Origin: a virus
Taxonomy: Duplodnaviria > Caudoviricetes
Virus record (IMG/VR): IMGVR_UViG_3300026488_000030
Coordinates: 1 to 52,654 of that record
DNA: 52,654 nucleotides
Reading direction: 5' to 3' (one strand)
Made by a program: the position numbers and the translations under genes. The notes under the pieces are model-generated. The model was not told the origin of the DNA. It ran no database searches and saw nothing but the letters and a program-made list of their open reading frames with translations. This document shows positions 7,747 through 45,217 of this stretch, in pieces; position 1 is the stretch's first letter; each line of letters begins with the position of its first letter.

Positions 7747-7747
7747 G

Positions 7748-19850: not shown

Positions 19851-19888
19851 GCAAAAATGCGCGCTTAATAAATAAAAATACAAAAAAC

Positions 19889-22141: not shown

Positions 22142-22879
22142 CTAAAACAATATCTTAACAGGTTTCTTCGTCAAATTATATTTCACAATATCTTTAACTG
22201 CCTCTTCAATAAATGAAACAACACAGTTGTTTCCATCACATATCAATTCCTCTGTAGTCTCTGATTCTAACAAAGTCATATCTTGTACAAAAAATTCATT
22301 TGCTTCTTCTGGTAAGAATTCTACCATCTGTGCTGATTTGTCAGATGGATTTGTAACAATATCATATGTTACAGCTTTTATAGGTAATCTTACAATTATT
22401 GATCCATCAGGTTGTGGATCAACAGAACCAAATGCTCTTAGTGAGAAACCAATGTTGCCTTTGTCATAGACAATTAGATTGTAGAGATCTGGACCTTTGA
22501 AGGATGTTAATGTTTCGAATGTTCCAATGACGTTTTTACCATCGAATTTTATATCATTTAATAAAGCGCCGGATTCCTTCAAGGATACTACAACTGCGCG
22601 CTTTTTAATTTGATCAACAGTACCTGCTACAAATGGATGGTCAATTTCCATATACAACCTTCTCGACTGTGCCTTAGGTTGCAACTGTTGTACTACAGAT
22701 GAAAGCACCTCAGGTGAGTATACTCTGTTGTTTTGATTTTTTACATTAGCAGTTTGCAATGTTGCTTTAGCAGTTACTTTTGGAATACGTTTACCTTCTG
22801 TAATATCGGCAGATTCTGATAGTATCTGTAAGTTCGGTGGAGTGTAAGCTTCTTCGTAAATGAAGTAGTATCTGTTCAT
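22142..22879 (-). CDS. prohead core protease (T4 gp21-like)
   Basis: LQTANVKNQNNRVY, MEIDHP (His), GFSLRAFG (Ser), TYDIVTNPS (Asp). Confidence 0.9.
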   Translation of the reverse strand: MNRYYFIYEEAYTPPNLQILSESADITEGKRIPKVTAKATLQTANVKNQNNRVYSPEVLSSVVQQLQPKAQSRRLYMEIDHPFVAGTVDQIKKRAVVVSLKESGALLNDIKFDGKNVIGTFETLTSFKGPDLYNLIVYDKGNIGFSLRAFGSVDPQPDGSIIVRLPIKAVTYDIVTNPSDKSAQMVEFLPEEANEFFVQDMTLLESETTEELICDGNNCVVSFIEEAVKDIVKYNLTKKPVKILF

Positions 22880-23223: not shown

Positions 23224-23256
23224 GATTGTGCTCCTGATTGTTTGAATTGAATATAG

Positions 23257-23585
23257 TTTAGCGCGCGAATTGCGATGGTTATTGCAAGTGGTTGGAGTTG
23301 TTACGCTAATGGCGTTTAAACTCGCGCATATCACAAACAGCTGAAGCTGTTACGCTACCACGCGATAAATCGCGTGTTATCATCCGCAACTGAAGTTGGA
23401 ATGCTATGCGCAGAATAATCTGCGCATATAGCGACGTAAACGCGCCTATATGCAACGATATGAGCGCCATCAATATAAAACATTGATTTCGACTGTATCG
23501 TCGCGTATACGCAAAATATGTCGCTATTAGAGCCAGGTTGCGGATATAGTTACTGTAGTAGATGTATGTTACAATTAGTTGTAGT
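23257..23585 (+). repeat. family A element, copy 5 (core 23428-23527)
   Basis: full module set; tandem with copy 6 (354-bp period). Confidence 0.95.
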
Positions 23586-23609: not shown

Positions 23610-23920
23610 ACCGCCAGTGCTTAAACACACGCATATCACTCGTGGCTAAAGTCAGAGTGCTATGCGCAGAATAATCTGCGCATATCGCAAACAGTTGAAA
23701 CTGTTACGCTACCACGCGATAAATCGCGTGTTATCATCCGCAACTGAAGTTGGAATGCTATGCGCAGAATAATCTGCGCATATAGCGACGTAAACGCGGT
23801 TATATGCGACGATATGAGCGCCATCAATATAAAACATTGAATTCGACTGTATCGTCGCGTATACGCAAAGTATGTCGCTATTAGAGCCAGGTTGCGGATA
23901 TAGTTACGGTCGATAGTATT
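23610..23920 (+). repeat. family A element, copy 6 (core 23782-23881)
   Basis: core plus duplicated tatgcgcaga-ataa-tctgcgcata hairpin. Confidence 0.95.
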
Positions 23921-23988
23921 AGTTAATGAAAATTGAACATTGCTGATAGAAATTATTGCAATGAATACTTCAAAGGAGGTGATGTAAA

Positions 23989-26198: not shown

Positions 26199-27314
26199 CT
26201 AAGCATTAGACGTTGCTGACAACCAATATTTCACAGCAGTCAAATCACCGAAATCCATAGCATCTGATGGAGTAGATATGGTAATGTAGTCGATAGTGTT
26301 GACAGCTGAACCAGCATAACCACCACCGAATACACCGCGGTTGTTAGTACCGTTGGATACAGCTCCTGAAGTTTCCCTTGCAACAGTCAAATCACCGAAA
26401 TCTGAAGCATTTGATGGAGTAGATATGGTGATGTAATCAATAGTGTTGACAATTGAACCAGTACTACCACCACCGAATACACCACGGTCGTTAGTACCGT
26501 TAGATGTCGCTGATGGAGCTTCCCTTGCAACAGTTAAGTCACCGAAATCTGTAGCATCTGATGGAGTAGATATGGTGATGTAATCGATAGTGTTAACTCG
26601 TGATGAACCATCCCAACCACCACCGAATACACCACGGTCGTTAGTACCGTTAGATGTTGCTGATAGCCAATTCCTCGCAACAGTTAAGTCACCGAAATCT
26701 GTAGCATCTGATGGAGTAGATATGGTGATGTAATCGATAGTGTTAACTCGTGATGAACCAATATCGCCACCACCGAATACACCACGGTCGTTAGTACCGT
26801 TAGATGTTGCTGAAAAACTACTTCTCGCAACAGTCAAATCACCGAAATCTGAAGCATTTGATGGAGTAGATATGGCGATGTAATCAATAGTGTTGACAAT
26901 TGAACCAGTACTACCACCACCAAATACACCACGGTCGTTAGTGCTGTTAGATGTTGCTGATGGAGCATCTCTCGCAACAGTCAAATCACCGAAATCTGTA
27001 GCATCTGATGGAGTAGATATGGTGATGTAGTCGATAGTGTTAACTCGTGATGAACCATCATAGCCACCACCGAATACACCAGTATCACCACAGGGGAGTG
27101 AACCTGTACAGTTACCGGAACTAGAACTATTAGTATTTAACATCAACCATCTGTTATTATGAAAGACATAAACATAATCGATTAGTCCTGATTCTGATAA
27201 ATGTGCCCAGACCATACCTTCGAATGGAGCGTCTGGGGTATATTTGCTTATTATGTCTGGATGAAAATTATTGTCATTTACAGGAAGAGGTCGAATGCTT
27301 CCTGGATTTGCCAT
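26199..27314 (-). CDS. 6-bladed Kelch-like beta-propeller, putative virion adhesin (paralogue 2)
   Basis: SD gaggtg + ATG 27314; six blades nearly identical to the paralogues. Confidence 0.75.
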   Translation of the reverse strand: MANPGSIRPLPVNDNNFHPDIISKYTPDAPFEGMVWAHLSESGLIDYVYVFHNNRWLMLNTNSSSSGNCTGSLPCGDTGVFGGGYDGSSRVNTIDYITISTPSDATDFGDLTVARDAPSATSNSTNDRGVFGGGSTGSIVNTIDYIAISTPSNASDFGDLTVARSSFSATSNGTNDRGVFGGGDIGSSRVNTIDYITISTPSDATDFGDLTVARNWLSATSNGTNDRGVFGGGWDGSSRVNTIDYITISTPSDATDFGDLTVAREAPSATSNGTNDRGVFGGGSTGSIVNTIDYITISTPSNASDFGDLTVARETSGAVSNGTNNRGVFGGGYAGSAVNTIDYITISTPSDAMDFGDLTAVKYWLSATSNA

Positions 27315-27368
27315 TTTATGCACCTCGTTTGGGAATTTAATTGAATGAAAAGCGCCGAAATTGGAATG

Positions 27369-27449: not shown

Positions 27450-27613
27450 AAAGTGAACTACCGTACCTAACTGTTACACAGTCTGAACACGGCTTCCTGC
27501 CCAGGTTGGACAGGCAATCTTCCTCTGACAACAGGGAGAACTGCAATCCACGGTCGATGTTGATTTATCCTGCTGCTGATTGTGTTATGATTCAACAGAG
27601 GTATTCTCAGCGA
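27450..27613 (-). repeat. family B element, copy 2
   Basis: colinear with 11625-11782 over full length. Confidence 0.85.
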
Positions 27614-27622: not shown

Positions 27623-27650
27623 AAAAAGCGAAACCAGCAGGTGGTTTCGC
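27623..27650 (-). terminator. intrinsic terminator
   Basis: gcgaaacca-gcagg-tggtttcgc with A-run. Confidence 0.75.
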
Positions 27651-27677: not shown

Positions 27678-28301
27678 TTACACCTTTGGATTATAATTCA
27701 AATACTCTTCAACAATCTCCGTCATCTTCTGTCCTCTGCTTCTAAGCTTAGCTAGAACCTCAGCTGGGTCTTCTAAATCTGTTCTGTCTTTATACAATCC
27801 TTCGTCTATTTCTGCTAATATACTGTCAACCATTGTTTTATATTCTGTTAATTTAGTTGGTAGATTGCTGTTATTATCCATTATCCATTTGGATAATCTA
27901 AGTAGTAGACGTTCATTTAGTGTTACACGTTTCCATAAGTCTGCGACTATGTCGTAGATGTCTTCGACTTCTGCGTGGAGTTTGTGTCTAGTTTCCAATT
28001 TTTTTAGCGCTTTTAAAGCTTTAGCTTTTAATTGTTTTTCATTAGATGTTAAAGCGCGCATTTCGCTTTCCGGATCAGAAGGATCCGTCGGTACCTGGTC
28101 TACACCTAGGAACTTGAAACCTTCTGCTGTTTCATCATCAACAGGCATAGGTTCCCAGTATTTGATGGTGTGGAATAGGTTGCTGTCTATTTCACCTAAA
28201 TAGTAATCACCATAATTACCAAGTATGGTAGCGTTTGGCGGCATAGGTCCACCGATTGTTGGAAGGTATCTGTTTAAGAAAATAAATTTTGTAGTTGCCA
28301 T
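27678..28301 (-). CDS. hypothetical protein between propeller genes (possible fibre chaperone)
   Basis: SD ggagg; 207-aa helical ORF. Confidence 0.6.
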   Translation of the reverse strand: MATTKFIFLNRYLPTIGGPMPPNATILGNYGDYYLGEIDSNLFHTIKYWEPMPVDDETAEGFKFLGVDQVPTDPSDPESEMRALTSNEKQLKAKALKALKKLETRHKLHAEVEDIYDIVADLWKRVTLNERLLLRLSKWIMDNNSNLPTKLTEYKTMVDSILAEIDEGLYKDRTDLEDPAEVLAKLRSRGQKMTEIVEEYLNYNPKV

Positions 28302-28340: not shown

Positions 28341-28470
28341 TGCCGTACTCAACTGCCACGCAGTCTGAATACGGCTTCCTACTCGGATTGGATAGGCATT
28401 CTCTCCTCTGGTAACAGGAAGAACGTGATCTACGGTCGATACTGATTCGTTCTGCTGTTAATCACGTTTC
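28341..28470 (-). repeat. family B element, copy 3 (diverged, compensatory changes)
   Basis: gccgta..tacggc, actgc-cac-gcagt, ccta..tagg. Confidence 0.8.
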
Positions 28471-28521
28471 GAAGTGTGTATTTTTTGCGATAATTGCTAC
28501 AGTCAACGGTGACTCCAACAA

Positions 28522-29604
28522 CTAAGCGTTAGATGTTGCTGATAAAGTATCTCTCGCAACAGTCAAATCACCGAAATCAGTAGCATCTGATGGAGTAGAT
28601 ATGGTGATGTAGTCGATAGTGTTGAATCGTGATGAACCATTACTACCACCACCAAATACACCACGGTCGTTAGTACCGTTAGATGTTGCTGCCAAATTAT
28701 CTCTCACAACAGTCAAATCACCGAAATCAGTAGCATTTGACGGAGTAGATATGGTGATGTAGTCGATAGTGTTGAAGGTTGATGAACCATCCCAACCACC
28801 ACCGAATACAGCACGGTCGTTAGTGCCGTTAGATGTTGCTGATAAACATTCTCTCACAACAGTCAAATCACCAAAGTCTGTAGCATTTGATGGAGTAGAT
28901 ATGGTGATGTAGTCGATGATGTTGAATCGTGATGTACCAGCATAACCACCACCAAATACACCACGGTCGTTAGTACCGTTAGATGTTGCTGCTAAAGCAT
29001 ATCTTGCAACAGTTAAATCACCGAAGTCTGTAGCATCTGATGGAGTAGATATGGTGATGTAGTCGATAGTACTGAAGTAACCACCTGAACCATTAGCACC
29101 ACCACCAAATACACCACGGTCGTTAGTACCGTTAGATGTTGCCGATAACCAAGCTCTCGCAGCGGTCAAATCACCAAAATCAGTAGCATCTGATGGAGTA
29201 GATATGGTGATGTAGTCGATAGTACTGAAACGTGCACCATTCCAACCACCACCGAATACACCACGATCGTTAGTACCGTTAGATGTTGCTGATAACCAAT
29301 CTCTCGCAGCGGTCAAATCACCAAAATCAGTAGCATCTGATGGAGTAGATATGGTGATGTAGTCGATAGTGTTGAGGTATGAACCGTCATAACCACCACC
29401 AAATACACCAGTATCACCAAGTCCGAAGTTTCCAGATGATAACGCTACCCACCTGTTGTCAGGTTCGTTGTAAACAAATAACGTATCATTGTTTGTGTTG
29501 TACCAAAGCTGGTTGTGAAATGGTGATGATGGTGCTGTGTCGGAAACATAGACGAAGTTTTTACTTTTAGATGGATCAGGAGTTATGTTTGAATATGTTG
29601 CCAT
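28522..29604 (-). CDS. 6-bladed Kelch-like beta-propeller, putative virion adhesin (paralogue 3)
   Basis: six blades; N-terminus nearly identical to paralogue 1. Confidence 0.75.
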   Translation of the reverse strand: MATYSNITPDPSKSKNFVYVSDTAPSSPFHNQLWYNTNNDTLFVYNEPDNRWVALSSGNFGLGDTGVFGGGYDGSYLNTIDYITISTPSDATDFGDLTAARDWLSATSNGTNDRGVFGGGWNGARFSTIDYITISTPSDATDFGDLTAARAWLSATSNGTNDRGVFGGGANGSGGYFSTIDYITISTPSDATDFGDLTVARYALAATSNGTNDRGVFGGGYAGTSRFNIIDYITISTPSNATDFGDLTVVRECLSATSNGTNDRAVFGGGWDGSSTFNTIDYITISTPSNATDFGDLTVVRDNLAATSNGTNDRGVFGGGSNGSSRFNTIDYITISTPSDATDFGDLTVARDTLSATSNA

Positions 29605-29632: not shown

Positions 29633-30049
29633 TTATGTGTCTAAATGTTGTGATATATATAGCGCTAGAGTTTGAGGACTGAAGTAGTAGTGGAGATGAT
29701 GTTTGAGTGATTGTGGTAGTGATTGATAACAGTTAGTGGTATGTTGTTTTAGTAGTTGTGATTTTTCCTTGGTGTAGTTGATGTAGTTTTGTTTGTCGGA
29801 GAAGTGAGTGTGGGTGATGGTTTTGTTGTTATTAGATGTTGGAGTGATGGAGTATTTTTTGTTTAATTTATTTAGCGCCGGTTTGTAGATGGAGTTGGAG
29901 TAGGTGTTGATGTGAAGGTCGAGAGAATGAAGTAGAGTGATGTATTCTGATTCGGTTAATGGTTTAGGTTTTTTTAATAGCGCGCGAAATGCGATGGCTA
30001 ATGCAAATGCTGCAACTGCTGTAATAATAGCAACTGTTACTGTGTCCAT
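29633..30049 (-). CDS. N-terminally membrane-anchored hypothetical protein
   Basis: SD aggag; VAIITAVAAFALAIAF followed by basic KKPK. Confidence 0.6.
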   Translation of the reverse strand: MDTVTVAIITAVAAFALAIAFRALLKKPKPLTESEYITLLHSLDLHINTYSNSIYKPALNKLNKKYSITPTSNNNKTITHTHFSDKQNYINYTKEKSQLLKQHTTNCYQSLPQSLKHHLHYYFSPQTLALYISQHLDT

Positions 30050-30417: not shown

Positions 30418-30694
30418 AAGTGAAATACCTCCGTTTCACTGAAAGATATTATTAAGATGTTTTTTGATATCGATAAAAGTGATATATAATAAAAGAAATT
30501 GTTGATAATATACTATTTGTGAGTAGTTATAGGTATGGTACCACTGTGGGACATTTGACTTTAAATCGCGATTTTGGATGGAGTTGAAGTGGTTGAGATA
30601 AAGAGAAATAGAGAGATTATTAGGAAAGCGCGCGAAATTGGATCCTGTGATTATCGCGAATGTGGTTAAGCACCATTGTCGCTGAAACAGGCTC

Positions 30695-30935
30695 ATACCA
30701 CTCGTGACTAAAGTCAGAATGCTATGAGCGCTTAAATCTGCGCATATTGCAAACAGCTGAAGCTGTTACGCTACCACGCGATAAATCGCGTGTTATAGCG
30801 ACGTAAACGCGCCTATATGCGACGATATGAGCGCCATCAATATAAAACATTGATTTCGACTGTATCGTCGCGTATACGCGAAATATGTCGCTATTAGAGC
30901 CAGGTTGCGGATATAGTTACTGTCGTAGATATATG
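30695..30935 (+). repeat. family A element, copy 7 (core 30795-30894)
   Basis: 100-bp core; lacks the middle atccgcaac module. Confidence 0.95.
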
Positions 30936-31045
30936 TTGAATTCAACATTTACGAATAGAAATTATTCAACCAGAACCTTCCAGTTATTGACTTTAATTGT
31001 CTGGTAATAGAAATTATAATACAAATCTCTTATGGAGGAGGCTTT

Positions 31046-31093
31046 ATGAAATACTTCATCGACGACGATTGGGACGTTGTAGACGTTTATTAA
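31046..31093 (+). CDS. 15-aa acidic micro-peptide MKYFIDDDWDVVDVY (not in ORF track)
   Basis: ggaggagg SD with correct spacing, ATG 31046, TAA 31093, downstream terminator. Confidence 0.45.
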   Translation: MKYFIDDDWDVVDVY

Positions 31094-31107
31094 ATAACGT
31101 CCCACTG

Positions 31108-31159
31108 AAGCAAGCACCGGGAACAATAGACACCTTCCAACCCGGTGCTTGCTTTATTT
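31108..31159. terminator. bidirectional terminator-like hairpin
   Basis: perfect 14-bp stem aagcaagcaccggg/cccggtgcttgctt with 19-nt loop + tattt. Confidence 0.7.
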
Positions 31160-31169
31160 GTCTGGGAAT

Positions 31170-32885
31170 TTACTCTAATGAAATACCGGAAGCTCGTCCG
31201 AATGCTTCATTGTCTGCTGAAAGTTTTGATGAATTGCTAATGAATTCAGGTAAGTCGGAAGAAAGCTCTTCTAATGATTCATAGATGCGAAGGTTACCAG
31301 TGAAGAAAATAGCGGAATGGTGGTCGTCTTTTTTGCCTTCTTTGGCTTTAGTAGTTTTCATTTCAAATGGTATTAGGTAATCGGAGTTTAGTAGATTTTC
31401 TAATTGGTATTGTGGTGGAAGTTGAAAAGAAGAAAGAATATAGCGCGAGTTTTCGATGGATTTGTCACCAATCCATTCGGTAATGTCTTTATCGCGTCGT
31501 TGACGACACATGAAGATGTAGTCAGAGTATCTGACTTTTTTGTATGAATCACCAATGTCTTCATTAGACATTGTGATAGATGTTTCGGAAGAACGGCGAT
31601 TTTGAGTTGCTGTTATTATTGGTAATTTATAAGCGCGCGAAATGGTTCGCAGTTCTTGAACAATTGTTCCTTGAGCATCATAGTCACGCATTTCACGACG
31701 GTGAATAGTTGGAACAAACACGTCAATGTAATCTGCAAATACTGCTCTGACATTGTAACCGTCTACTTTAAGACGGTCAATGAATTTAGCTAAGTCAGTG
31801 GGTGTAAATGTGTTTTCTTCAGAATGTTTCAAAATAATAGAAACTTTACCTTGTGTACGATTGTAAAGAGTTGTTGTTACTGTATTAGAGAGAAGCGCTT
31901 CAAATTGAGATTTGTATTTACTATATTCAGGACGACGAGAAATTTGCATACCATAACGGAATAAGCGCTTAACTTCATCTACTGATTGATTTCCTATTAT
32001 TGAAATAAAGCGCCGGAGTAGCTTATAGATATCATCTTCTAAAGTAACAAATAGTATTGCATCATTTGATTTAAAATTTGGCAATTCATTATTTAGAATA
32101 CGAGATAGTATGTTTACTAAAAGTATAGATTTACCGTGATTGGATGGTGCTGAAACAACATAAACAGATGAAGATTCAACACCACCAAAAGGACCGTCTA
32201 AGAGACGGTAACCAGTTTTAAGGATGTTGTATTTACTGAATAAGTATTCAGAAACTGAATCTGTTAGTTTTTTGAAAGATTCTTCATCTGAAAGAGTGAA
32301 GAAACTTTTGAAGTTTTCCTCTTTGTGTAATTGTTTAAGATTTGTTAATGAATTATAAGCGCTGAGAACTGTTTCTTCATATATTTTTAGCGCTTCAAAT
32401 GGATTTGTTGCTTGATTTTGAATTAGTGTTGAAAGTGAATCTATTTGATTAAGCGCCGGAGTTATGTTCTTTAACTCATAAAACGCCTGCATTCTAGCAT
32501 ATACGAAATCTTTCACACTGTTGTAATCTGTATCGTTAGTTATTGGAGCTGCTTTTATTTGTTTAATTAAATTGTGAATAATAGTTGATTCAGATTGTGC
32601 AAAATGTTTGTCGACTGTTGAATAATTCATTGCAGCAATGTTACCAACCTGTTTGATACGAACAGTTTTGTCAATGAATTCGATTTCATCATCTATGTCG
32701 ACTTTGATGTCTAGTTCATTAATAGTTTTACGAACATCGTCAATGAATGTTGCTGTATTATTTAGAAATTCAATTTGATTTTCTAATGATGTTGGATAAA
32801 GAATAGCCCGGCCTAAGTCAACGAAAAATTCATGATTTAAAAAGCGCCTGAAAAAGGCGACTACCAGAGTACTCGTGTTTGTCAT
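31170..32885 (-). CDS. DnaB-like (SF4) replicative helicase
   Basis: Walker A SAPSNHGKS, FVTLED, FADYID, ELRTIS..LPIITATQ. Confidence 0.85.
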   Translation of the reverse strand: MTNTSTLVVAFFRRFLNHEFFVDLGRAILYPTSLENQIEFLNNTATFIDDVRKTINELDIKVDIDDEIEFIDKTVRIKQVGNIAAMNYSTVDKHFAQSESTIIHNLIKQIKAAPITNDTDYNSVKDFVYARMQAFYELKNITPALNQIDSLSTLIQNQATNPFEALKIYEETVLSAYNSLTNLKQLHKEENFKSFFTLSDEESFKKLTDSVSEYLFSKYNILKTGYRLLDGPFGGVESSSVYVVSAPSNHGKSILLVNILSRILNNELPNFKSNDAILFVTLEDDIYKLLRRFISIIGNQSVDEVKRLFRYGMQISRRPEYSKYKSQFEALLSNTVTTTLYNRTQGKVSIILKHSEENTFTPTDLAKFIDRLKVDGYNVRAVFADYIDVFVPTIHRREMRDYDAQGTIVQELRTISRAYKLPIITATQNRRSSETSITMSNEDIGDSYKKVRYSDYIFMCRQRRDKDITEWIGDKSIENSRYILSSFQLPPQYQLENLLNSDYLIPFEMKTTKAKEGKKDDHHSAIFFTGNLRIYESLEELSSDLPEFISNSSKLSADNEAFGRASGISLE

Positions 32886-32905
32886 AAAGTGCCCTCCCCA
32901 TTTGG

Positions 32906-34588
32906 TTAGTTATGATATTCGGCTAAAACTTGAGCGGAAACAGCTTTTATTAGCGCTGAAATGAATAAACTGTTGTAAAATGCAGCAACTTGACTGGAAT
33001 GTACCTGTGTGATAACGTTAATTTGATTTTGAACTGTAGTTGGAGTAATATTGTAATTGATAGAGCTATTGTCTAAAGTAGTATTAATCGAGTTAATTAT
33101 TTCTGTTGCTGTATTGGACATAAATCCAGGATTTTGAAGTGAGTGTATGAAAATTTTATTATGAAAAGTTTTTTGTGTATTGATGGAGTAATCACTGTTA
33201 AAGGTTTTATCAGTAAAACCTTTAGTGTATAGCATATTGTGTATGGAGATAAGAATGTTACTGTAATCTTCGACTCTGGTAGTCTCCAAGTATTTGAAAA
33301 AGTGGTTAATGATAAGAGCTGAGAAGTAATTGTTTATTAATAGAGAAGCGCCGGATTTGGCGTATGGCACAATATCGTAATCAGTGGCATTAAATGCTGT
33401 TGCTATTGCAGATGGGTCAATTGTATTATACTCATCGACAATATCAGCGCTAGTTAGAATATTATAATTAGCGTTTGTATATAGTATATTTAACACGTAA
33501 TATTTAACGGCGTAAGGTATTGCGTTTAGGAAAACAATTGGATCATTGACGAAATAGTATGGTAAGTATAAGTATAAAGTTAGCGCTTGAGGCGTTTCTT
33601 TAGCTAAAAAGTTTGAGTATAAGTTATATTCTGCAATTGCTGTTTGTGGGTTGAATAATTGTGTTAAATTATTTGAAATTGTATATAGCGCCAATTTTGA
33701 TGAACTGTATTGAAGCAGTATTGATGTGAAATCATAAATTAGTTTGCTCAAGTTATCTAAATCATACAAATAGTTATTCACAAAATCATCAATTAGCGGA
33801 TACAATTTAGATATCAGTATCGACTTAAACTCATTACATAGTTGAGTCTTTATTGTATTCGTTATTTGATATACTAGAAGAACCTGGCGACTATAAGATG
33901 TAAATAATTCGCATATAAAATTGTCGTTATTGAACAAGCCTTTTAAATCAGAAATTAGCGTTTCTTTATTTAGGTCGTGGAGTATATTGTCAGCTGTAAT
34001 ATTGAATAATGAGTTAAGATTAGCGCTGAAAAGTCGTCGGTATAGCTCGTAGTATGTTGTATATTTAGTTAGAGGATAAGTGAATGCACCAGGTGTTGAT
34101 TGATCTTCCAGTATTGAAGTATCAGGTGATACTACAGTAAAATCGTTTAGAGACATAGGAATAGATTCAGTAAATAGTGACGGAACTGTCGGATATTTTA
34201 TTAAATCACGGAAGGATGTACAGGATTTTATGTTTAAATAATTATAAAGCGCGGGAAAATCACAAGTTGTTTGTTTCAAACTTTCAAATGTTATCCTAGT
34301 TCGCTGTAAATCGGAAGGCATATTCTGTTTAGTGAATTCGTGATCAACAGTAACACCTGCAGCAATCTTTACTGGTGAATATCCTGATGTTGAAATAAAA
34401 TTAAAATATCGATTCAACGGTTCCAAGATTCGTATTCTTTGTTCATCTTTTATTAAAGCGCTAATTAAATTAACGGTAACAGAATCTGTTAAAGTCGAAA
34501 GTTGATTTTGCTGAAGTGTATCGAATTTTTGAGGATCTGCTTGAAATGTTGCAAATGAAGCGAATGTATATGCTAATGGATTATACAT
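32906..34588 (-). CDS. hypothetical (probably virion) protein
   Basis: 560-aa ORF with SD aggag in late operon. Confidence 0.6.
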   Translation of the reverse strand: MYNPLAYTFASFATFQADPQKFDTLQQNQLSTLTDSVTVNLISALIKDEQRIRILEPLNRYFNFISTSGYSPVKIAAGVTVDHEFTKQNMPSDLQRTRITFESLKQTTCDFPALYNYLNIKSCTSFRDLIKYPTVPSLFTESIPMSLNDFTVVSPDTSILEDQSTPGAFTYPLTKYTTYYELYRRLFSANLNSLFNITADNILHDLNKETLISDLKGLFNNDNFICELFTSYSRQVLLVYQITNTIKTQLCNEFKSILISKLYPLIDDFVNNYLYDLDNLSKLIYDFTSILLQYSSSKLALYTISNNLTQLFNPQTAIAEYNLYSNFLAKETPQALTLYLYLPYYFVNDPIVFLNAIPYAVKYYVLNILYTNANYNILTSADIVDEYNTIDPSAIATAFNATDYDIVPYAKSGASLLINNYFSALIINHFFKYLETTRVEDYSNILISIHNMLYTKGFTDKTFNSDYSINTQKTFHNKIFIHSLQNPGFMSNTATEIINSINTTLDNSSINYNITPTTVQNQINVITQVHSSQVAAFYNSLFISALIKAVSAQVLAEYHN

Positions 34589-34600
34589 GACTCATCTCCT

Positions 34601-35899
34601 TTATGCGAAATTGGTGACGTCGTAATTATCTGCAATTGCTTGATTTACAATATCATTTGCCTTGTCATCTATACCAGAAGTTCCTTGACTCATTTGGCCG
34701 ATTGATGAAGCTGCAATATTCTCGGATTCTTTAAACCAAGACTGAGCAGTTAATTTGTCTGCTTGTTCTTTAAAACTTTCATCTAACACTTTTAAAATAC
34801 CGTCTATACCTAAGTTCTTTTCATTGACTGAAGTGTCTTGCAAATTAACAGGACGGAGAGATTCGACTACTGAACCTAATGTTTGGAATAGCGCTGAATT
34901 TCGTGAAGACAAACCTGAATTAGCATTAATTGGAATATTTGCTTCGGAAATTACATCGTTCTCAGGATTAGCTGATGATGTGAAAACACCAAATCCATCA
35001 ACAATTTGTTGAAACTGTATAGAAACATCAATAGTCAGTGGTTGTCTGTAAACGTTAAAACTAGTGTCATTACCACCTCTACGCAATGTTACATTTGCAA
35101 CTGATGCAAGAATTAGTTTAGATACACCATATGCACGGAGAGTAAAAGTTAGCGCTTGTCCATATGAAATTCCGTCGCTGGTTTGAGGAGCTGCCATTGC
35201 GATAATATACATTAGTGGTTCAATAATATATTCTTTAACAGCATCTGGGTGACCGTATGGTGAAACTAGTTTAATTGTTGCAGTTAAACCTGTGTCATAC
35301 TTAGACTCATACCATATCTTAGGCAAAGGTATCTTATTACCTAATGCAACAGTTTTACCAAGTGTAACTAGTGCTGAAGCAGCTTCATTTGCTGCGTTTT
35401 CAGACATAACCTTACCTAAAACAGATGAAATTTGTTTTTGTATTTTATCGCTGTTATTTTCAACAGCATTTGTATATGAAACATTTCCGAATAAAGATGC
35501 AGCAGCTTGCTTTGCTTGAGCAAAATGACCTGATAACTTATTCAACATTCCTTGAAACATGTTATCTTGAAAAGCATTTGAGAAGGTATCAGTAGCAACT
35601 GTATCGTCAGTTAAAAATAGTCGAATACCTTTCACAGGTGTTAAATTGTATGCTTGGAGAATCTTTTTAAAGCGCGCGATTCCAGGTTCGTATTCAATCC
35701 TAGGTAAAATTTTATTAAACAAATTACCACCATCAGGTGATTCATATGCTTTTTTTATTTCGTTCAAATCTATTGAAGCTGTACATGGTATTATATCAAT
35801 AACGCTCATTTTACTTTTAAGATATGACGAATGTCTATTGTTTGGATCTGCTTTTGGTTGAAAACTGATGGGTTTACCGATTTCGTATAAATCAATCAT
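34601..35899 (-). CDS. putative baseplate/tail-tube initiator-type protein
   Basis: follows tape measure; PKIWYES, IKLVSPYG, VTLRRGG, PLTIDVSI. Confidence 0.45.
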   Translation of the reverse strand: MIDLYEIGKPISFQPKADPNNRHSSYLKSKMSVIDIIPCTASIDLNEIKKAYESPDGGNLFNKILPRIEYEPGIARFKKILQAYNLTPVKGIRLFLTDDTVATDTFSNAFQDNMFQGMLNKLSGHFAQAKQAAASLFGNVSYTNAVENNSDKIQKQISSVLGKVMSENAANEAASALVTLGKTVALGNKIPLPKIWYESKYDTGLTATIKLVSPYGHPDAVKEYIIEPLMYIIAMAAPQTSDGISYGQALTFTLRAYGVSKLILASVANVTLRRGGNDTSFNVYRQPLTIDVSIQFQQIVDGFGVFTSSANPENDVISEANIPINANSGLSSRNSALFQTLGSVVESLRPVNLQDTSVNEKNLGIDGILKVLDESFKEQADKLTAQSWFKESENIAASSIGQMSQGTSGIDDKANDIVNQAIADNYDVTNFA

Positions 35900-35935
35900 A
35901 GTTGCACTCCTTTGAATTCAGGAGCGTGAGGTATA

Positions 35936-38900
35936 TTACCCCACGCCCACAGGTATTATTGGATATTGTTGCATTTGTGTTGCAAATGCGTTAACCTGAT
36001 TTGCAAATAATTTATCAGCAATATTTTCAGCAACAGGATCAATAGTTGGTTCTTCAGGTTTTTCTGGTATTGATGGAACAGGCTGATTATTATTGATAAT
36101 AACGGGCGATTGTTGCGGCTGTACTAACTGCTGTTGTTTCAAATTCAACGATGCTTCACTAACTGTTTTTGTGGCTTCAGTCGCAGTTGTTGCTATACCA
36201 GTCCAGTTATTACCAGCAGGTGTTGCCATTGCTGTTTTTGGCGCTGATTCAAAAACCTCTGTATCAACATATGAGAGTTGTTGCATAATTCTAGGAACAT
36301 TGGCAATATAATTCTGTGTCTCTTTAGGCATCTTATCAATTTTACCACTGTAGTACTTACCTACATTACCAGGTCCCCAATTGTAAGCTGCCAATGCTTT
36401 TACTAAATCACCTTTATAGCGCTTTAAAAGTGTTGCCAGGTAATATGAACCAGCGTATACGTTCGCATATGGATCTGACAATATTTCTTCTTTAGATAAT
36501 CCTGTTAGTTTAGACAAATATGCAGCGGTAGATGGCATAATCTGCATTAATCCTCTAGCACCAACATGAGAAACAGCATCTGGTTTTCCACGAGATTCCT
36601 GATATATTTCAGCAAGAATTAATGACGGAGAAACATGCAATCCTTTTTCTTCTAATTCTGATGATACTTCAACTGCTAAATCTTTCCATCTTGAAACAAC
36701 TCTTTGAACATCAGGAGATGTCGATTGTCTTCTTATTGTAGGAACAATTCCAGCTTCAACAAATCCACCGGTTCCTCCAGTTATTGGATGTGTTGTATGT
36801 GACTTAGATGGAGCTTCAATTCCTATCATACCTAAGGAACCAGCTTCACTAAATGTAGCAGATGGACCTGTTTTTGGAAGTATGACACTAGATGGAGATT
36901 CGCTAATTGATGAAGCTGGTTTTGTGATTAAATATTGGTTATAATGTTTCATCAAATATTCGCCAAATGCAATATATTCGTCTTCGCTGATATTCTTCTT
37001 TTTACTTAAAGCATCAGCGCGTGAAAGTATATCTTGAACAGCTTCCTCAGGCATAGATACTAAGTCGAATCGATTTATCACATCTTTTAATGATTTTGGG
37101 TATACTTTCTCATGGCTTGTTACTAAGTCAACAACTCTCTTTTGCTCTTTGGATAAATTATTATATGCTGCTTTATCCTTTTCTAACTTATTAATAGGCG
37201 TTGCAAATGTTTTTCCAACACTAATGCCTGCAACATGACTAGATGATGCTTTTTCTTCTTTATGACCGAATATATGATCCTTCAACCATAACAGTCCATC
37301 GATTAAAAAGGATGCCACAGTTCCAACTCCAGGTACAGCTGCAGTTACACCTGATATTAACTCAAGTGCTGCTCCTAAATAATCTTTATCTTTAAAGCGC
37401 TGAAATGCTAAATATCCACCAATAATAGGAGCCAAAGGACCTAATTTTTTACCAACTTTACCAAATATCTTTATAATTCCTTTTCCAGATGCTTTAGCCG
37501 CTTCTTCAGCATATTTACCAATCGTTGGAACAAATTTAGATAACCAACTTGTGCCTTTGCCAAATTCCGCAGCAGCTTTACCCATCTTACCTAAATAGCT
37601 ACCAATCAAATTGAAAAATTTATTGACAGGTTCGAACAACTTGAGTAATTTACCTGCAATCTCCTCACCTTTAATCGCTATCTCTCCGAATGAATCAACA
37701 CGTTTGCCTAACCATGAGATAAAATCGCCAATTTTACTTATGATTTTACCTGCGACACTTTGAATCTTCTCAAAATCTTTAACAATACCATCAACCGTTC
37801 TCACTGATAAGTATTTGGCAAATGCAGCACCTTCTTTTATTAGTCTAAAAGAGGATGGGGCTAACATTGTGCCTAATCCCAATCCCAATGTGAGGAGAGG
37901 ATGTTCACCTACAAATTTCAATGCGTCAACAATACCTAAACTAAGCTGTTTGGTAAACTGTTTAGACGGTTTAGTTGCTTTATACAATTTTTTCAGTTCG
38001 TTAACAATAGTAACTGCCGCTTTAGATAGAGTCTCGCGGAATTTAGATTCTTCACGTTGTTCTTCTTCCTGTCTGACTTCAGAAAGTTCCTGTGAAATAG
38101 TTCTAGTTCTAGTTACTAATACTCCACCTTTGTTTGCTAAAACAATTCCTTTATGTTCTGGAACAGTTGGAGTTGTTAGACCACGAAGTTGCATTTGAGG
38201 TGGTGGAGGTGGAGTTACTATTGGACTAGATTCTTCTCTGAAATTATATCCAGGTATTGATTTAGTGAATTGTTTTGAGATTGATTGTTCAATGTATTCT
38301 TCAATTTCTTTACGGACTTTTTGTGTAATATTTGATTTGAATAGCGCTTTATTTAGAACAGGAGTATATGCTTCTATTGCAGTTTGTAGTAATTCGTTCT
38401 TTAAACTTTGGACTGTTTCTTCAGTGATGGATTCGTATTTATTAGTGAATGGATTCCATTGTAGTTGTGGAACTTGATGCATTTGTTTTGTCTGAATATT
38501 AGATAAGCGCTCAAATAGCTGTAGTAAACGACTTAGAACATCTAATTGCTCTACATTGACACTGTATAACTTATATAACAGGTTAGGTAAACCGTCAGCG
38601 ATGTATCCATATGCTCGTTGTTCTACTGATTTTATTTTAGATTCAAGCGCGCGTTTTGCTTCAGTAACAGCAAGTTCCTTCGGTTTAGTTAAAAACCTGT
38701 CTTGCAATTGCTGATATAAATTCTTAGCTTTGTTTGGTAAGTCTACAATAAAATGTGTAAACTGTGGTAATAATTTAGCCCAACTGACTAAAGCAGCAAT
38801 ACCAGGTATGCTGTACGCTATCTTTTCGGGAAGCTCTTTTATAATATCCATCAATTGTTTCCAGGTAGTCTCCGGAGGTGTATAACCAACTGCTTCAGTC

Positions 38901-40264
38901 CTTCCTAATCCAAAACGTCTTATCGTTAACAATTCTCGCGCTTGAAAATTCATTATATCATAAATACCAGCAGTAAGTAACAACATTTTACCTTCATACG
39001 AATCGGCCATTGACATCAATTCATATGAACGAGTTGTTAATAATCTAGCATCAGACATCCTAACGCCTAAAAACGAAACCTGTTTCTTTTCAGCAAGAGG
39101 TGTTTGCGTTTTACCGTAAACACGTTCAATCATCCTAAGAGTCTGCAATGGTGTTTTACCAGTTAATAGATTCCAGAATTGTTGGAATGGATCTAATTTA
39201 ACTTGTAATTTGAGCAATTGTTTTTCTAAATTTGAAAATACAGCGCCAAATTCACTTTTTAATGACTCATCAACTTGTTCATGAACGTATTTGGAATAAT
39301 CTTCGATACCAGATTCTTTCGGCTTTGACTTCTTCTGTTCCTGTAAATCGAGTAAGGAATAAATCCCCGCAATAGGCGATGTATGTTTTTCAATCGCAGT
39401 GAGAAGTGCAATTTGTACTTGCTCTCCAGGTCTCAATTGACCTTGTGCTGTCAGTTGTTGAACGTAAGGATTAATTGAATCTGAAACTGAATAACGTCGC
39501 TCTATTTCACCTTCCTGTACAGGTGCTGCTTTTAACTTTGCCATTCTAGATGCTTTCCACATCGATACGCCCATAGACATTGCTAGAAAAGGAGCGAACA
39601 TCGAAAGTGAACCTAAAGCACCCGCAGTTGGAAGGTGGACACCCAATGTACTACCTAATGCTGCATTAATACCATGATACATACCTTTTTCAACTGAGTA
39701 CAATGGGCTTGTGAATGGCATATGAGAGATTGGATGACCACCTAACAGAGGTGGAATAACTGTACCTAACGCTAATGGTGTTGTATACATTAACCTATTG
39801 ATACCATACAGAGCGCCTAGTGCACGAGATGCATAACCAGCAGCTCCTAATTCCTTCTCATATGCTTTGCTAGTTAATGTGCTCCTAAGAGATGAAGCGC
39901 CAGATGTACCAGACATCAAACCATAAAATCCAGCAGCTGGTATTATAAGTGGCATATTGCCTACTTTGGTTGATTCTAAAAAATGATAGCCTTTTTCGAA
40001 AATTGTTGGTTCGTGTTTAGCTTGTTCAGCTACATGATGAGGAGCTCCAGCTCGAAGAACCATAGATGTTGCAATATATGGATAAGTCAAATAGCGCATC
40101 ACTGGAGCTATACGTTGTGAAAATAACTTCTGTTCGGCTTCTACTTCTTGTTTTTGTTGTTTAGATGATTGCTGTTTTTCATATTCTGCAATATATTCAA
40201 GGAAACGTCCTTGATGTTGCTCTTTTCGTCGTTGTTCTTCTCGTTCAATAGGTGTCATTGGCAT
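35936..40264 (-). CDS. tape measure-like protein with C-terminal SLT lytic transglycosylase
   Basis: 1442 aa, largely helical; IYQESRG, GARGLMQIMPST, ALAAYNWGPG, ETQNY. Confidence 0.85.
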   Translation of the reverse strand: MPMTPIEREEQRRKEQHQGRFLEYIAEYEKQQSSKQQKQEVEAEQKLFSQRIAPVMRYLTYPYIATSMVLRAGAPHHVAEQAKHEPTIFEKGYHFLESTKVGNMPLIIPAAGFYGLMSGTSGASSLRSTLTSKAYEKELGAAGYASRALGALYGINRLMYTTPLALGTVIPPLLGGHPISHMPFTSPLYSVEKGMYHGINAALGSTLGVHLPTAGALGSLSMFAPFLAMSMGVSMWKASRMAKLKAAPVQEGEIERRYSVSDSINPYVQQLTAQGQLRPGEQVQIALLTAIEKHTSPIAGIYSLLDLQEQKKSKPKESGIEDYSKYVHEQVDESLKSEFGAVFSNLEKQLLKLQVKLDPFQQFWNLLTGKTPLQTLRMIERVYGKTQTPLAEKKQVSFLGVRMSDARLLTTRSYELMSMADSYEGKMLLLTAGIYDIMNFQARELLTIRRFGLGRTEAVGYTPPETTWKQLMDIIKELPEKIAYSIPGIAALVSWAKLLPQFTHFIVDLPNKAKNLYQQLQDRFLTKPKELAVTEAKRALESKIKSVEQRAYGYIADGLPNLLYKLYSVNVEQLDVLSRLLQLFERLSNIQTKQMHQVPQLQWNPFTNKYESITEETVQSLKNELLQTAIEAYTPVLNKALFKSNITQKVRKEIEEYIEQSISKQFTKSIPGYNFREESSPIVTPPPPPQMQLRGLTTPTVPEHKGIVLANKGGVLVTRTRTISQELSEVRQEEEQREESKFRETLSKAAVTIVNELKKLYKATKPSKQFTKQLSLGIVDALKFVGEHPLLTLGLGLGTMLAPSSFRLIKEGAAFAKYLSVRTVDGIVKDFEKIQSVAGKIISKIGDFISWLGKRVDSFGEIAIKGEEIAGKLLKLFEPVNKFFNLIGSYLGKMGKAAAEFGKGTSWLSKFVPTIGKYAEEAAKASGKGIIKIFGKVGKKLGPLAPIIGGYLAFQRFKDKDYLGAALELISGVTAAVPGVGTVASFLIDGLLWLKDHIFGHKEEKASSSHVAGISVGKTFATPINKLEKDKAAYNNLSKEQKRVVDLVTSHEKVYPKSLKDVINRFDLVSMPEEAVQDILSRADALSKKKNISEDEYIAFGEYLMKHYNQYLITKPASSISESPSSVILPKTGPSATFSEAGSLGMIGIEAPSKSHTTHPITGGTGGFVEAGIVPTIRRQSTSPDVQRVVSRWKDLAVEVSSELEEKGLHVSPSLILAEIYQESRGKPDAVSHVGARGLMQIMPSTAAYLSKLTGLSKEEILSDPYANVYAGSYYLATLLKRYKGDLVKALAAYNWGPGNVGKYYSGKIDKMPKETQNYIANVPRIMQQLSYVDTEVFESAPKTAMATPAGNNWTGIATTATEATKTVSEASLNLKQQQLVQPQQSPVIINNNQPVPSIPEKPEEPTIDPVAENIADKLFANQVNAFATQMQQYPIIPVGVG

Positions 40265-40275
40265 AATTGCGCCTC

Positions 40276-42087
40276 CTAAAAGATGCCAAAGTACGTATCG
40301 ACATCTTCAAATTCTGTTGTTTCAATGGGTGAATTTGTTGGGTCGAATATTTGAGTTAATAATTCAATCTCTTTGCGTTGTTCAGGTGTTAGTTGTTCAT
40401 CTGTTTGTTGTTTTAAAGCGCCGGATTGAGTCGAAGGTTTCACAGCTGTTGCTAATTCTTTTACAGTATTGAAAAATTCTTTTTCAAGTTTATCATTTGA
40501 CTTCTCAATTAGTGGTAGTATTTCCATAAGCGTCTTTTGTCTAACATAAGCACAGAAAGACGCAGCCATGAATAAGTCACTGTAACCTTTAACAGTGATG
40601 GTGCCTCTGTTAGATGTTTCAACTGTTGCAAATTGAGATATGAGTAATTGTGAATGGAAATTTTCTGGGTATTGTTCTACTTTCTCCTTAAGAAGTGCAA
40701 CCATTAAAGGTTTAGTATCACCACCTGTTCTTATTCCAAATTCGTTCTTTTTTGATTTCCAAATATAATTAGCGTAATTGATATCTGAAACTTGCATGGT
40801 TAAGTATTCTATGACAGCTTTACCGATGGAGTTATTTTCTATTGCTAATATTATTCTATTTGTATTAGCGCGCTGTTTTATATATCTAAAAACAGCATCA
40901 ACTACTTGTGCGTGATAAGTTAATGAACCAAGTTTAGATTGCAATTCAGCAACTTGATTGAAATCTTTATATGAAAATACCTGTATAGCATTATATGCAC
41001 CAGCTGTAGATGATGCTGTATCTACACCAATTAAATAGTAATCATTAGGATCGAATTCTGTTGTAAATAATTTCAATGTAGTTCCATGTGGCATGGATAC
41101 TTTTTCAACAGGAGTCGTTGCTTTTAATTGTGAAAGTGTTTCATCGGAGAATATACACTGAGTTGAACCAACGAATAGAAGATCAAGTTCCTGATTAATT
41201 AAGCGCTGACTTTTTAGTTCTCTACATTGTTCCATATACCATTTTTCATCTTTATTTGGATCTTCAGACCAATGATACCTAATTCCAATGAAACCATTTT
41301 TAGACGGGTCATCAAGTAATTGTCTCAATTTTTCATCGTCTATCCATTTTTCATGACCATTCTTATCTTTAACAAATAACATATCTGAATCAATTGAATC
41401 AGACCATCTCTCATAAAACCAATTCGGTTTATCATTTCCTTCAGGTGCATAAACGCCATTTGGTGTTGATGTGACTAACTGAAAATATGGATAATTATTT
41501 CTTTTTGCTTGCTGTCTAGCTGTTGCCAGAATCTGTTGAGCTGCACCATATATTTCATGTAGGTGTGGTATATATGCTGCTTCGTCAATGTATAAGATAG
41601 GAACAGTTAAGGATCTAGCAACTGTGTCTGGTTTGTGGACAGTTGATGGATACATAACTGTAACTCTAGAACCAGTTTCTAATTCAAAATACGTTTTACG
41701 AGAGATAGAACGCATTGGTGATGGAATTCGCATCCAGTCTGGTAGATTTTCCCACATGAACTTTATTTTGTCGATGTTTTCGTAACCTGCATCTTTTCTA
41801 AAGTTTAAAATAACAGCGCGCATTTTAGGAAAAAACAAAATAGCCCAAAGTATTATTGCAGCAGATATTGTCGACTTACCTAACTGACGAGATGCGAGAA
41901 AAACAGCTTTATGATGTCGATATATTGATCGAACAACTCGAGCAAGTTTGGGGTGGAAAACATCCCCGTAGAGACGTTTTCCACCGACCTCTGGAATGTA
42001 CACGTAATTGTATATGAAATAAAGTGGATTTAATCTACATTTTAGCAATTCAATTGCATGAAGTTTCTCACTGTTAACAATCTGCAT
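40276..42087 (-). CDS. terL: terminase large subunit
   Basis: ASRQLGKST, LYIDEAAYI, TSTPNG; nuclease IGVDTA, IENNSIG, SDLFMA. Confidence 0.92.
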   Translation of the reverse strand: MQIVNSEKLHAIELLKCRLNPLYFIYNYVYIPEVGGKRLYGDVFHPKLARVVRSIYRHHKAVFLASRQLGKSTISAAIILWAILFFPKMRAVILNFRKDAGYENIDKIKFMWENLPDWMRIPSPMRSISRKTYFELETGSRVTVMYPSTVHKPDTVARSLTVPILYIDEAAYIPHLHEIYGAAQQILATARQQAKRNNYPYFQLVTSTPNGVYAPEGNDKPNWFYERWSDSIDSDMLFVKDKNGHEKWIDDEKLRQLLDDPSKNGFIGIRYHWSEDPNKDEKWYMEQCRELKSQRLINQELDLLFVGSTQCIFSDETLSQLKATTPVEKVSMPHGTTLKLFTTEFDPNDYYLIGVDTASSTAGAYNAIQVFSYKDFNQVAELQSKLGSLTYHAQVVDAVFRYIKQRANTNRIILAIENNSIGKAVIEYLTMQVSDINYANYIWKSKKNEFGIRTGGDTKPLMVALLKEKVEQYPENFHSQLLISQFATVETSNRGTITVKGYSDLFMAASFCAYVRQKTLMEILPLIEKSNDKLEKEFFNTVKELATAVKPSTQSGALKQQTDEQLTPEQRKEIELLTQIFDPTNSPIETTEFEDVDTYFGIF

Positions 42088-45215: not shown

Positions 45216-45217
45216 AG

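Follow-up and report, generated by a model that had tools for sequence, protein, structure and literature searches.

Why should an AT-rich phage genome carry one short GC-rich word, on a preferred strand and with a preferred flank, again and again inside its genes? The question is raised by positions 31440-34900 of a 52,654-bp stretch of DNA, the entire IMG/VR virus record IMGVR_UViG_3300026488_000030 (here called the window; rated ~48% complete, 36.8% G+C), which belongs to an uncultured large contractile-tailed phage from hydrothermal vents. The word is AGCGC, and it is the most over-represented 5-mer of the window, with 118 copies on the plus strand against 18.0 expected (z 23.6), alongside 70 copies of GCGCT and 197 of GCGC. 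An earlier note, made from the letters of the window, had listed 18 plus-strand copies between 31440 and 34900, where it thought roughly one would be expected, and had guessed at many dozens across the window; all 18 positions are exact, composition predicts ~1.2 copies for that interval when the 18.0 per 52,654 nt are scaled to it, and the 118 copies bear out the guess. It had also placed the non-palindromic copies mostly on the plus strand, and so they are: apart from the 39 copies of the palindrome AGCGCT, 79 are on the plus strand only and 31 on the minus strand only. The interval and the three genes that it touches (ORF, open reading frame) are as follows.

31440-34900, plus strand: the reported stretch and densest part of the window, with 18 plus-strand copies and, in the three genes, no copies on the minus strand only.
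31170-32885, minus strand: DnaB-like replicative helicase gene (PHROGs and Pfam), 9 copies, all on its template (plus) strand, 5.2 per kb.
32906-34588, minus strand: orphan ORF of 560 aa, 8 copies, 4.75 per kb, the second-highest density in the window.
34601-35899, minus strand: virion-structural-like gene, 3 copies.

These numbers are not a by-product of the encoded proteins. ORFs contain 104 of the 118 copies, so the motif is not confined to intergenic or upstream positions, and 300 shuffles preserving both protein sequence and codon usage reduced this count to 23.3 +/- 4.4 (maximum 35), while 60 stricter shuffles that also preserved the dinucleotides at codon junctions gave 54.6 +/- 4.8 (maximum 65). 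All three frames are in use in the minus-strand genes (42, 31 and 25 copies), the core being read in the direction of the gene as GCG-CTN (Ala-Leu), NGC-GCT (Gly/Ser/Arg-Ala) or NNG-CGC-TWN (x-Arg-Phe/Leu/Tyr). A reading-frame or codon artefact is ruled out by both sets of synonymous shuffles and by this use of every frame. At two motif sites in the terminase gene the encoded residues agree with the family consensus (the invariant Arg295 and an Arg-Ala pair), and the motif is therefore made there by the choice of codons. The AGCGC overlay is real, strongly selected at the DNA level and written by codon choice, as was supposed when the motif was first described as a genome-wide overlay on coding sequence: the enrichment survives both kinds of shuffle and is spread over the frames.

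Aligned on the A of AGCGC (position 0), the 118 copies yield the consensus W-N-N-AGCGC-B-N-R-A-W-T-T, with ~13 informative positions. Position -3 is A or T in 112 of the 118; A occurs only once at +5; A or G stands at +7 in 98, A at +8 in 76, A or T at +9 in 102, T at +10 in 70 and T at +11 in 67. The form first seen by eye, an AT run followed by AGCGC, two letters and AAWTT, is thus borne out by the logo. The context of GCGC is asymmetric and not palindromic, having A at -1 and B-N-R-A-W-T-T on the 3' side only, and one motif occurs per roughly 360-450 bp. Among the strain differences listed (40 of 846), one of the 33 in 31320-34514 falls in a motif (34256, flank position +8) against ~2.6 expected, a comparison with no statistical power.

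The window is not the only DNA to carry this signal. ORFs were called and then annotated with PHROGs and Pfam in the window (50 ORFs) and with Pfam on the linked contigs introduced below (67 ORFs). Window genes lie on the plus strand from 1 to 7685 and on the minus strand from 8.4 kb to the right end; one encodes a 1,442-aa SLT-domain protein (PHROGs/Pfam), and the others that identify the phage (MCP, major capsid protein), likewise annotated with PHROGs/Pfam, are the following.

8427-9224, minus strand: tail tube gene.
9325-11556, minus strand: tail sheath gene.
19927-21495, minus strand: MCP-like gene.
22142-22879, minus strand: prohead protease gene.
40276-42087, minus strand: T4-type large terminase gene.

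No cultured phage is close by terminase (identity at most 28%), and the closest terminase among 5.8 billion proteins is 53% identical. The DNA recurs in independent assemblies: Logan contigs of 6 runs from 2 or 3 studies contain at least 58% of the words sampled from 31000-40999, a seventh run from another study contains 28% of them, and 3 of the 7 listed runs holding window DNA are labelled hydrothermal vent metagenome. JGI (Joint Genome Institute) contigs bear the same AGCGC motif. An invariant 18-mer of a repeat element in the window matched 16 metagenome loci, 11 of which come from two related data sets, and the top 5-mer is AGCGC or GCGCT in 7 of those 11. Exact 127-nt end overlaps connect contigs L052-L046-L048 and L061-L060, and an overlap at 98.9% connects the end of L056 with the right end of the window; these linked contigs belong to the same or a near-identical phage. 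Together, ten pieces including the window make up 132 kb with 273 copies of AGCGC (46 expected) and 200 of GCGCT (45 expected), that is 366 motif sites or one per ~360 bp.

According to Pfam, the linked contigs encode topoisomerase II, ribonucleotide reductase, a family-B DNA polymerase and SSB (single-stranded DNA-binding protein), as well as a Ro60/TROVE protein, a reverse transcriptase and TnpB. They also encode a multisubunit RNA polymerase (RNAP), with Rpb1 domains 1, 2 and 5 in L048:3446-6610 and Rpb2 domain 6 in L048:8446-10059. Its beta and beta' genes sit outside the window, on L048, which is joined by the exact 127-nt overlaps to motif-bearing contigs. Relatives of the beta' subunit were found only at 40% identity, on the 285 kb and 314 kb IMG/VR contigs that also carry the nearest terminases, which places the phage in a jumbo-phage lineage. 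A search for the host by way of TnpB gave a single match, at 25% identity, and neither tRNA genes nor known RNA families were found in the window or the linked contigs.

A further set of genes belongs to the 7-deazaguanine pathway: FolE2, QueD, QueC, a Gat-QueC fusion and a radical-SAM protein that is weakly QueE-like (L054:10698-13474, L060:5270-6196 and window 3688-4281). To judge from these genes, the phage DNA may contain a modified G, perhaps of archaeosine type. Passages of PMC6884629 describe 7-deazaguanine modifications as shielding phage DNA from restriction, and the pathway could be the reason why a GCGC-rich genome is affordable. Together with the two G that a GCGC core has on each strand, and with an even spacing (see below) that would suit an architectural protein, the pathway raises the idea that AGCGC is a landmark of DNA chemistry or architecture, being the target of a 7-deazaguanine-inserting enzyme or a methylase, or the site of a DNA-organising protein. 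We give this idea little chance. The targets of phage DpdA known from parts of PMC10484667 and PMC7544227 are 2-3 nt long (GA and GGC) and need no enrichment. A scan of 117 ORFs from the incomplete genome revealed neither DpdA/TGT (tRNA-guanine transglycosylase), nor a methyltransferase, nor any obvious candidate for DNA binding, and neither strand polarity nor a position upstream of genes would be expected of such a landmark. The earlier note had itself offered methylation, packaging, DNA organisation and transcription as possible roles. Methylation fares poorly: no C5 GCGC methyltransferase or DNA methylase family occurs among the 117 ORFs (an absence that is provisional, the genome being incomplete), and a palindromic site of the HhaI type would have no need of an asymmetric flank. 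Nothing points to a packaging or DNA-organising protein either, and of those proposals it is a reader connected with transcription that fits, given the copies just upstream of genes described below and the phage's own RNAP.

How far beyond this phage does the overlay extend? The AGCGC excess is absent from all 39 IMG/VR loci of relatives at 20-50% terminase identity, so the overlay would have arisen and been maintained within this lineage, to which it is private as far as these sequences tell. A search for upstream 6-mers in the relatives with 40%-identical RNAP beta' found no shared signal, and nine IMG/VR matches to a 16-base version of the motif resembled chance matches. Genome-wide polar motifs such as Chi, KOPS (FtsK-orienting polar sequences) and uptake sequences are known from bacterial chromosomes, whereas the signals known from phages, be they promoters, primase sites or nick sites, number a handful; in the literature searched, no phage is described as keeping a ~13-base strand-biased signal every 360-450 bases over at least 132 kb. 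The DNA uptake sequence (DUS) of Neisseria and the uptake signal sequence (USS) of Haemophilus come close in outward form, being dense overlays on coding sequence in all frames, with an AT-rich flank, inverted intergenic hairpin pairs and even spacing, all of which are seen here as well. The motif could by analogy be a DUS/USS counterpart, an overlay derived from the host or a neutral product of biased repair or mutation, functionless in the phage, and we regard this as extremely improbable. Uptake sequences are not known to be strand-polar and belong to competent bacteria, and nothing connects this phage to transformation; a polarity tied to composition skew is not among their known properties, a large phage of virulent type with replication and transcription genes of its own would not be shaped by transformation, biased repair of a palindrome would not produce an asymmetric flank, and the motif is missing from those 39 loci.

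The position of the copies relative to gene starts offers a first clue to function. In a survey of 93 gene starts from the window and seven contigs, GCGCT in the direction of the gene lies 25-75 nt upstream of the start codon in 25 of 93 genes, with a peak at 30-50 nt, against 3 of 93 at 76-126 nt. Aligned in gene direction, these regions read ...CAATTTCG(S)GCGCT, AAA or TTT, ~25 nt, AGGAGG, ATG, and on L046 all five of five consecutive small genes have an upstream copy. Many gene-proximal copies form the loop and 3' arm of a GC hairpin. Promoters of sigma-70 type are not enriched (70 against 72.5 +/- 9.1). Gene-proximal copies of the window, with two classic intrinsic-terminator-like elements, include these.

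32949-32963, plus strand: helicase upstream copy, 67-71 nt before the start codon, within the 3' end of the orphan ORF.
9261-9301, plus strand: tail-tube upstream copy, 41-44 nt before the start (9224), paired with an inverted copy at 9296 in a 9-bp GC stem just past the sheath stop.
11605-11619, plus strand: single tail-sheath upstream copy, 53-56 nt before the start (11556).
19653-19667, plus strand: upstream copy of gene 18669-19613, 44-47 nt before the start (19613) and downstream of the MCP terminator; it doubles as the closing arm of the repeat element at 19648-19861.
21535-21554, plus strand: MCP-like upstream hairpin AGCGC-CGAAATT-GCGCT, 44-47 nt before the start (21495).
21636-21655, plus strand: second, tandem MCP-like hairpin, 101 nt further upstream; in gene direction both hairpins read AGCGC-AATTTCG-GCGCT.
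27348-27362, plus strand: single upstream copy of gene 26199-27323, 29-41 nt before the start, downstream of the terminator at 27650-27628 and of conserved leader blocks.
29658-29672, plus strand: upstream copy of gene 28522-29604, 61 nt before the start.
44915-44929, plus strand: upstream copy of gene 42103-44886, 33-36 nt before the start.
49551-49565, plus strand: upstream copy of gene 48841-49512, 46 nt before the start.
19893-19916, minus strand: terminator-like hairpin and T run after the MCP-like gene, of a sequence unrelated to the motif.
27628-27650, minus strand: terminator-like hairpin and T run after gene 27678-28301, likewise unrelated in sequence to the motif.

The copies ahead of genes 18669-19613 and 26199-27323 thus lie downstream of classic terminators. 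Conserved non-coding blocks of three families (D13, D14 and D16), among them a CCTGCCC...GGACAGG hairpin, occur at 11653-11774, 27479-27603, 28361-28471, 21548-21596 and 48014-48044, on the upstream side of the motif copies that stand before the sheath gene and before two further genes; possible roles are those of leaders or upstream elements for late genes with high expression.

Most copies lie elsewhere. Along genes they are distributed uniformly (Kolmogorov-Smirnov p 0.28), and for 88 of 107 the distance to the next start exceeds 300 nt, so that the intragenic copies are not ordinary promoters of downstream genes. Their spacing between 31 and 52.6 kb is more even than random (coefficient of variation 0.75 against 0.98, P 0.009). 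Nor are they halves of hairpins: GCG follows at +9 to +30 in 11.6% of 95 intragenic copies against 12.5% at random positions and their folding energy is that of shuffled tails, while a hairpin does hold for many intergenic copies (52%). The motif is nearly missing, by contrast, from what are presumably the most highly expressed genes. It had been called sparse in the MCP and repeat genes at the outset, which agrees with the single copy in the 1,569 nt of the MCP-like gene and with the following counts.

16789-17904, 26199-27323 and 28522-29604: genes with 150-nt repeats, 0 copies each.
967-5711, plus strand: six ORFs (DUF7666 paralogues with 87-nt repeats, the radical SAM gene and others), 1 copy in ~4.5 kb.

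What, then, sets the orientation of the intragenic copies? It follows not the direction of the gene but the strand that is G-rich at third codon positions. Over 72 genes of at least 600 nt, the GC skew at third positions (GC3 skew) of the coding strand correlates with the number of co-directional minus anti-directional copies at a Spearman coefficient of -0.50 (p 9e-6); genes with C3>G3 hold 61 co-directional and 22 anti-directional copies, those with G3>=C3 37 and 47 (Fisher p 1.5e-4). The same contrast recurs piece by piece, the ratio of co- to anti-directional copies being 59:21 in window minus-strand genes, 6:1 on L052 and 18:9 on L056, where C exceeds G at third positions, and 7:11 on L048, 10:15 on L054, 5:11 on L060 and 2:4 in window plus-strand genes, where G exceeds C. 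Counted by class, 85 of 117 copies are co-directional in the first class and 28 of 76 in the genes on the other strand. Within the joined L052-L046-L048 scaffold the direction of the genes flips and AGCGC remains commoner on the plus strand. The motif is thus polar, as the earlier note had proposed, both in its 79:31 ratio and in its link to skew. On the plus strand of the window G exceeds C and T exceeds A, a combination that marks the strand serving as lagging-strand template; transcription-driven deamination would yield the opposite sign for minus-strand genes. The tie between motif orientation and composition skew points to a polarity linked to replication, with the G-rich strand as the presumptive lagging-strand template.

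The upstream copies and the intragenic ones share one extended consensus, which would suit a purely transcriptional explanation without any link to replication: all copies would be promoters of a phage RNAP, the intragenic ones being real internal promoters, sense or antisense according to gene class, and whatever transcription the motif drives would proceed in a single direction. The peak upstream of genes with its layout of motif, ~25 nt, AGGAGG and ATG, the copies that follow terminators and the phage's possession of an RNAP are all in keeping with this, as is the scarcity of the motif inside genes that probably need the cleanest high expression and that have a copy just upstream. We nevertheless judge it unlikely. 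With 88 of 107 copies more than 300 nt from a downstream start and a uniform distribution along genes, the products would mostly be truncated sense RNAs, and in the other gene class the copies are mostly antisense (48 against 28). The skew of the motif strand (G>C, T>A) is opposite to that left by transcription-driven deamination, and the accounts of known jumbo-phage promoters in passages of PMC7598289 report no such density.

A polarity that is independent of gene direction is also a property of the nick sites of T5/BF23, tf and phiKMV-like phages, whose consensus lies largely on one strand whichever way the genes run. Passages of PMC3517423 give the major-nick consensus of T5 as 5'-R/GCGCRGG-3', which has the R/GCGC core in common with the motif, report 14 copies of TACT/RTGMC in tf, all on the top strand despite converging genes, and place phiKMV-type nicks on the non-coding strand, where the motif of the window minus-strand genes is also found. 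The motif could by this token specify site- and strand-specific nicks in packaged or replicating DNA, made by a nickase that cuts between A and GCGC on one strand. Such a role is improbable in our view. The motif is denser by one to two orders (366 sites in 132 kb, or one per ~360-450 bp, where tf has 14 in 46 kb and T5 a few major nicks by the passages of PMC3517423), and strand confinement, complete in tf, is just ~2.5:1 here. A peak upstream of genes is no known property of nick sites. No nuclease is tied to the motif, neither a SNase-like gene at 49517-49969 nor a PD-(D/E)XK gene on L056 having been assigned to it.

Chi and KOPS, the host chromosome signals read by RecBCD/AddAB or FtsK, are similar in another way: they too are over-represented throughout coding sequence and co-oriented with a strand asymmetry of replication type. 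In Bacillus subtilis, Chi is the 5-mer AGCGG; GCG also occurs in other Firmicute Chi sequences, and phages enriched in Chi are on record. A short over-represented core that is strand-polar, co-oriented with replication-type skew and evenly spread through coding sequence might accordingly be a Chi-like signal for a host nuclease of RecBCD/AddAB type, accumulated to protect or recombine linear or rolling-circle DNA. This seems to us very unlikely, as the motif is found in a phage, its seven-base 3' flank and the W at -3 exceed any known Chi, and a Chi-like role would explain neither the peak upstream of genes nor the avoidance of the motif in some of them.

The overlay therefore resembles compact phage promoters, primase sites, the nick consensus and Chi without fitting any of them. 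The core with its one-sided flank, the upstream peak, the strand polarity and the vent habitat all count for the explanation that we prefer, if tentatively: AGCGC may be the core of a compact strand-polar signal at which RNA synthesis starts, serving both as gene promoter and as a set of starts scattered over the strand presumed to be the lagging-strand template. Written in the direction of synthesis, the signal would be 5'-AAWTY-N-V-GCGCT-WWW-3', in which some seven bases (AAWTYNV) would serve for recognition, ahead of a G/C-only start (GCGCU) well suited to hold where the genome is AT-rich. Gene-proximal copies would be promoters, probably for the phage's own multisubunit RNAP, and intragenic copies dispersed starts for the primers of discontinuous DNA synthesis or for replication-coupled transcription.

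Known primases provide precedents for parts of such a signal. The T7 primase site, as given in passages of PMC12839067, is a pentanucleotide, 5'-(G/T)2GTC-3', on a single-stranded template with a contributing 10-nt 3' flank, much as the AGCGC core has a seven-base 3' flank and is biased to the strand with G>C and T>A. The DnaG of the thermophile Aquifex aeolicus prefers the G/C-only trinucleotides CCC, GCC and CGC, for which extracts of PMC2532735 propose an adaptation to heat; the start here would likewise be G/C-only, and the samples are from hydrothermal vents. Unlike the sites of either primase, the motif is longer (~13 informative positions), also stands upstream of genes, is enriched ~6-fold and is accompanied by no recognised primase gene. 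We know of no primase sites that are enriched. As to promoters, parts of PMC7598289 describe that of the non-virion RNAP of phage AR9 as spanning -11 to +1 and being read on the template strand, even in single-stranded DNA, and give AACA-N6-T-A/G for AR9 late promoters, TATG for phiKZ late promoters and AT-rich motifs for early ones. Like these jumbo-phage signals, the motif is compact, private to its phage and placed upstream of genes near the presumed start, and homologues of beta and beta' are encoded; unlike them, it has a GC core rather than an AT-rich or 4-nt sequence, and hundreds of strand-polar copies inside genes.

Several observations weigh against an RNA-start signal of this kind. 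Its polarity is a bias and not a rule (79:31 among non-palindromic copies in the window, with mixed ratios in the other contigs), and the anti-directional excess is weak in genes on the other strand (48 against 28, p 0.03 against 0.5). The classes of GC3 skew coincide with functional classes (structural genes on one side, RNAP, replication and nucleotide genes on the other), so that a difference in codon usage between early and late genes could mimic replication skew. Several gene-proximal copies of GCGCT, especially on contigs with G3>C3, are hairpin arms holding both orientations, and there the orientation relative to the gene is consequently not shown independently; free intergenic space may also lie behind part of the upstream peak. 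The majority of late genes would face replication head-on, an unusual arrangement, and trinucleotide primase sites are so common that an ordinary primase would need no 13-nt signal. No DnaG, Toprim-primase, AEP (archaeo-eukaryotic primase) or Prim-Pol was found among the 117 ORFs, the genome being incomplete at 132 kb where relatives have 285-314 kb. Finally, the scarcity of the motif in presumably highly expressed genes fits a transcriptional effect, and is not predicted in detail by such a signal.

One variant of the RNA-start signal would dispense with a separate primase. By analogy with AR9, the multisubunit RNAP of the phage might read the GC-core signal on single-stranded lagging-strand template behind the fork and so double as lagging-strand primase, the signal perhaps containing 7-deazaguanine, much as AR9 recognition depends on uracil. 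Though highly speculative, this would explain the polarity, the intragenic density, the upstream copies and the lack of a recognisable primase together, and it would imply that late transcription is coupled to replication and that antisense RNA is made across early genes.

The orphan ORF beside the helicase gene was considered as a candidate primase, and every sequence search with it was empty: it has no family or homologue in Pfam, PHROGs, NCBIfam, PDB sequences or a protein atlas, matches only itself in libraries of 5.8 billion and 1.84 billion proteins, and yields an unusable single-sequence AlphaFold model (pLDDT, the predicted local distance difference test, 32). Among the motif-poor genes, four plus-strand paralogues (2-952, 2423-3616, 4728-5711 and 6741-7685) encode a DUF7666 domain at the N terminus and, after it, tandem 87-nt (29-aa) repeats, 23 units of which make up family D1, and are almost free of the motif. 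The paralogues at 16789-17904, 26199-27323, 28522-29604 and L056:8420-9490 consist of tandem 147-153-nt (~50-aa) repeats, with 40-nt blocks up to 100% identical between genes, and all are motif-free. A lone plus-strand ORF at 15562-16329 (255 aa, TTG start, no family), inside the block of minus-strand genes, has three AGCGC on its own strand; it is a genuine gene on the opposite strand or else a chance ORF where the minus-strand gene map has a gap.

The repeat element that led to the linked contigs is intergenic, ~150-300 nt long with a nearly invariant core of ~120 nt, and it is present in the window in eight copies, all in the same orientation, as follows.

6296-6667: repeat element copy.
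7740-8031: repeat element copy.
8074-8336: repeat element copy.
19648-19843: repeat element copy.
23252-23574: repeat element copy.
23634-23928: repeat element copy.
30614-30941: repeat element copy.
44918-45219: repeat element copy.

Further copies occur on L046, L048, L051-L054, L056-L058, L060 and L061, and assemblies break at the element. Folding gives a long imperfect hairpin with AGCGCGCA/UGCGCGCU as its closing arms (246 nt, -71.2 kcal/mol, z -4.1), and the element has no match in Rfam. One copy lies upstream of the TnpB gene (L051) and another directly upstream of the reverse transcriptase gene (L060:9364-10362); the element may be a MITE-like (miniature inverted-repeat transposable element) derivative of IS200/605 or a structured RNA. 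The Ro60/TROVE and vWA protein is encoded at L054:6542-8227, and the ORF-free stretch of 633 nt upstream of its gene (L054:5906-6540) might include a Y-RNA-like gene; searches there with Rfam and ARAGORN were empty. An unrelated AT-rich viral IMG/VR contig (L066; 18,121 nt, 33.8% G+C) is rich in other GC-rich words (CCGGC 30 against 2, CGGCG 34 against 3, GCGC 84 against 14), which may be a different private overlay or a hairpin family.

To our knowledge, the AGCGC signal is far denser than any known phage promoter, priming site or nick site, and the phage spends rare codons to keep it. Should it prove to start RNA, a promoter or priming code could be read for a large clade of uncultured vent phages that encode an RNAP, and there would be a direct way into the replication and transcription of an AT-rich genome at high temperature; were the sites nicks, no denser system of site-specific nicking would be known. 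Whichever holds, the motif makes it easy to bin the scattered contigs of this phage, a use to which it was put here, and offers a defined oligonucleotide substrate for biochemistry.

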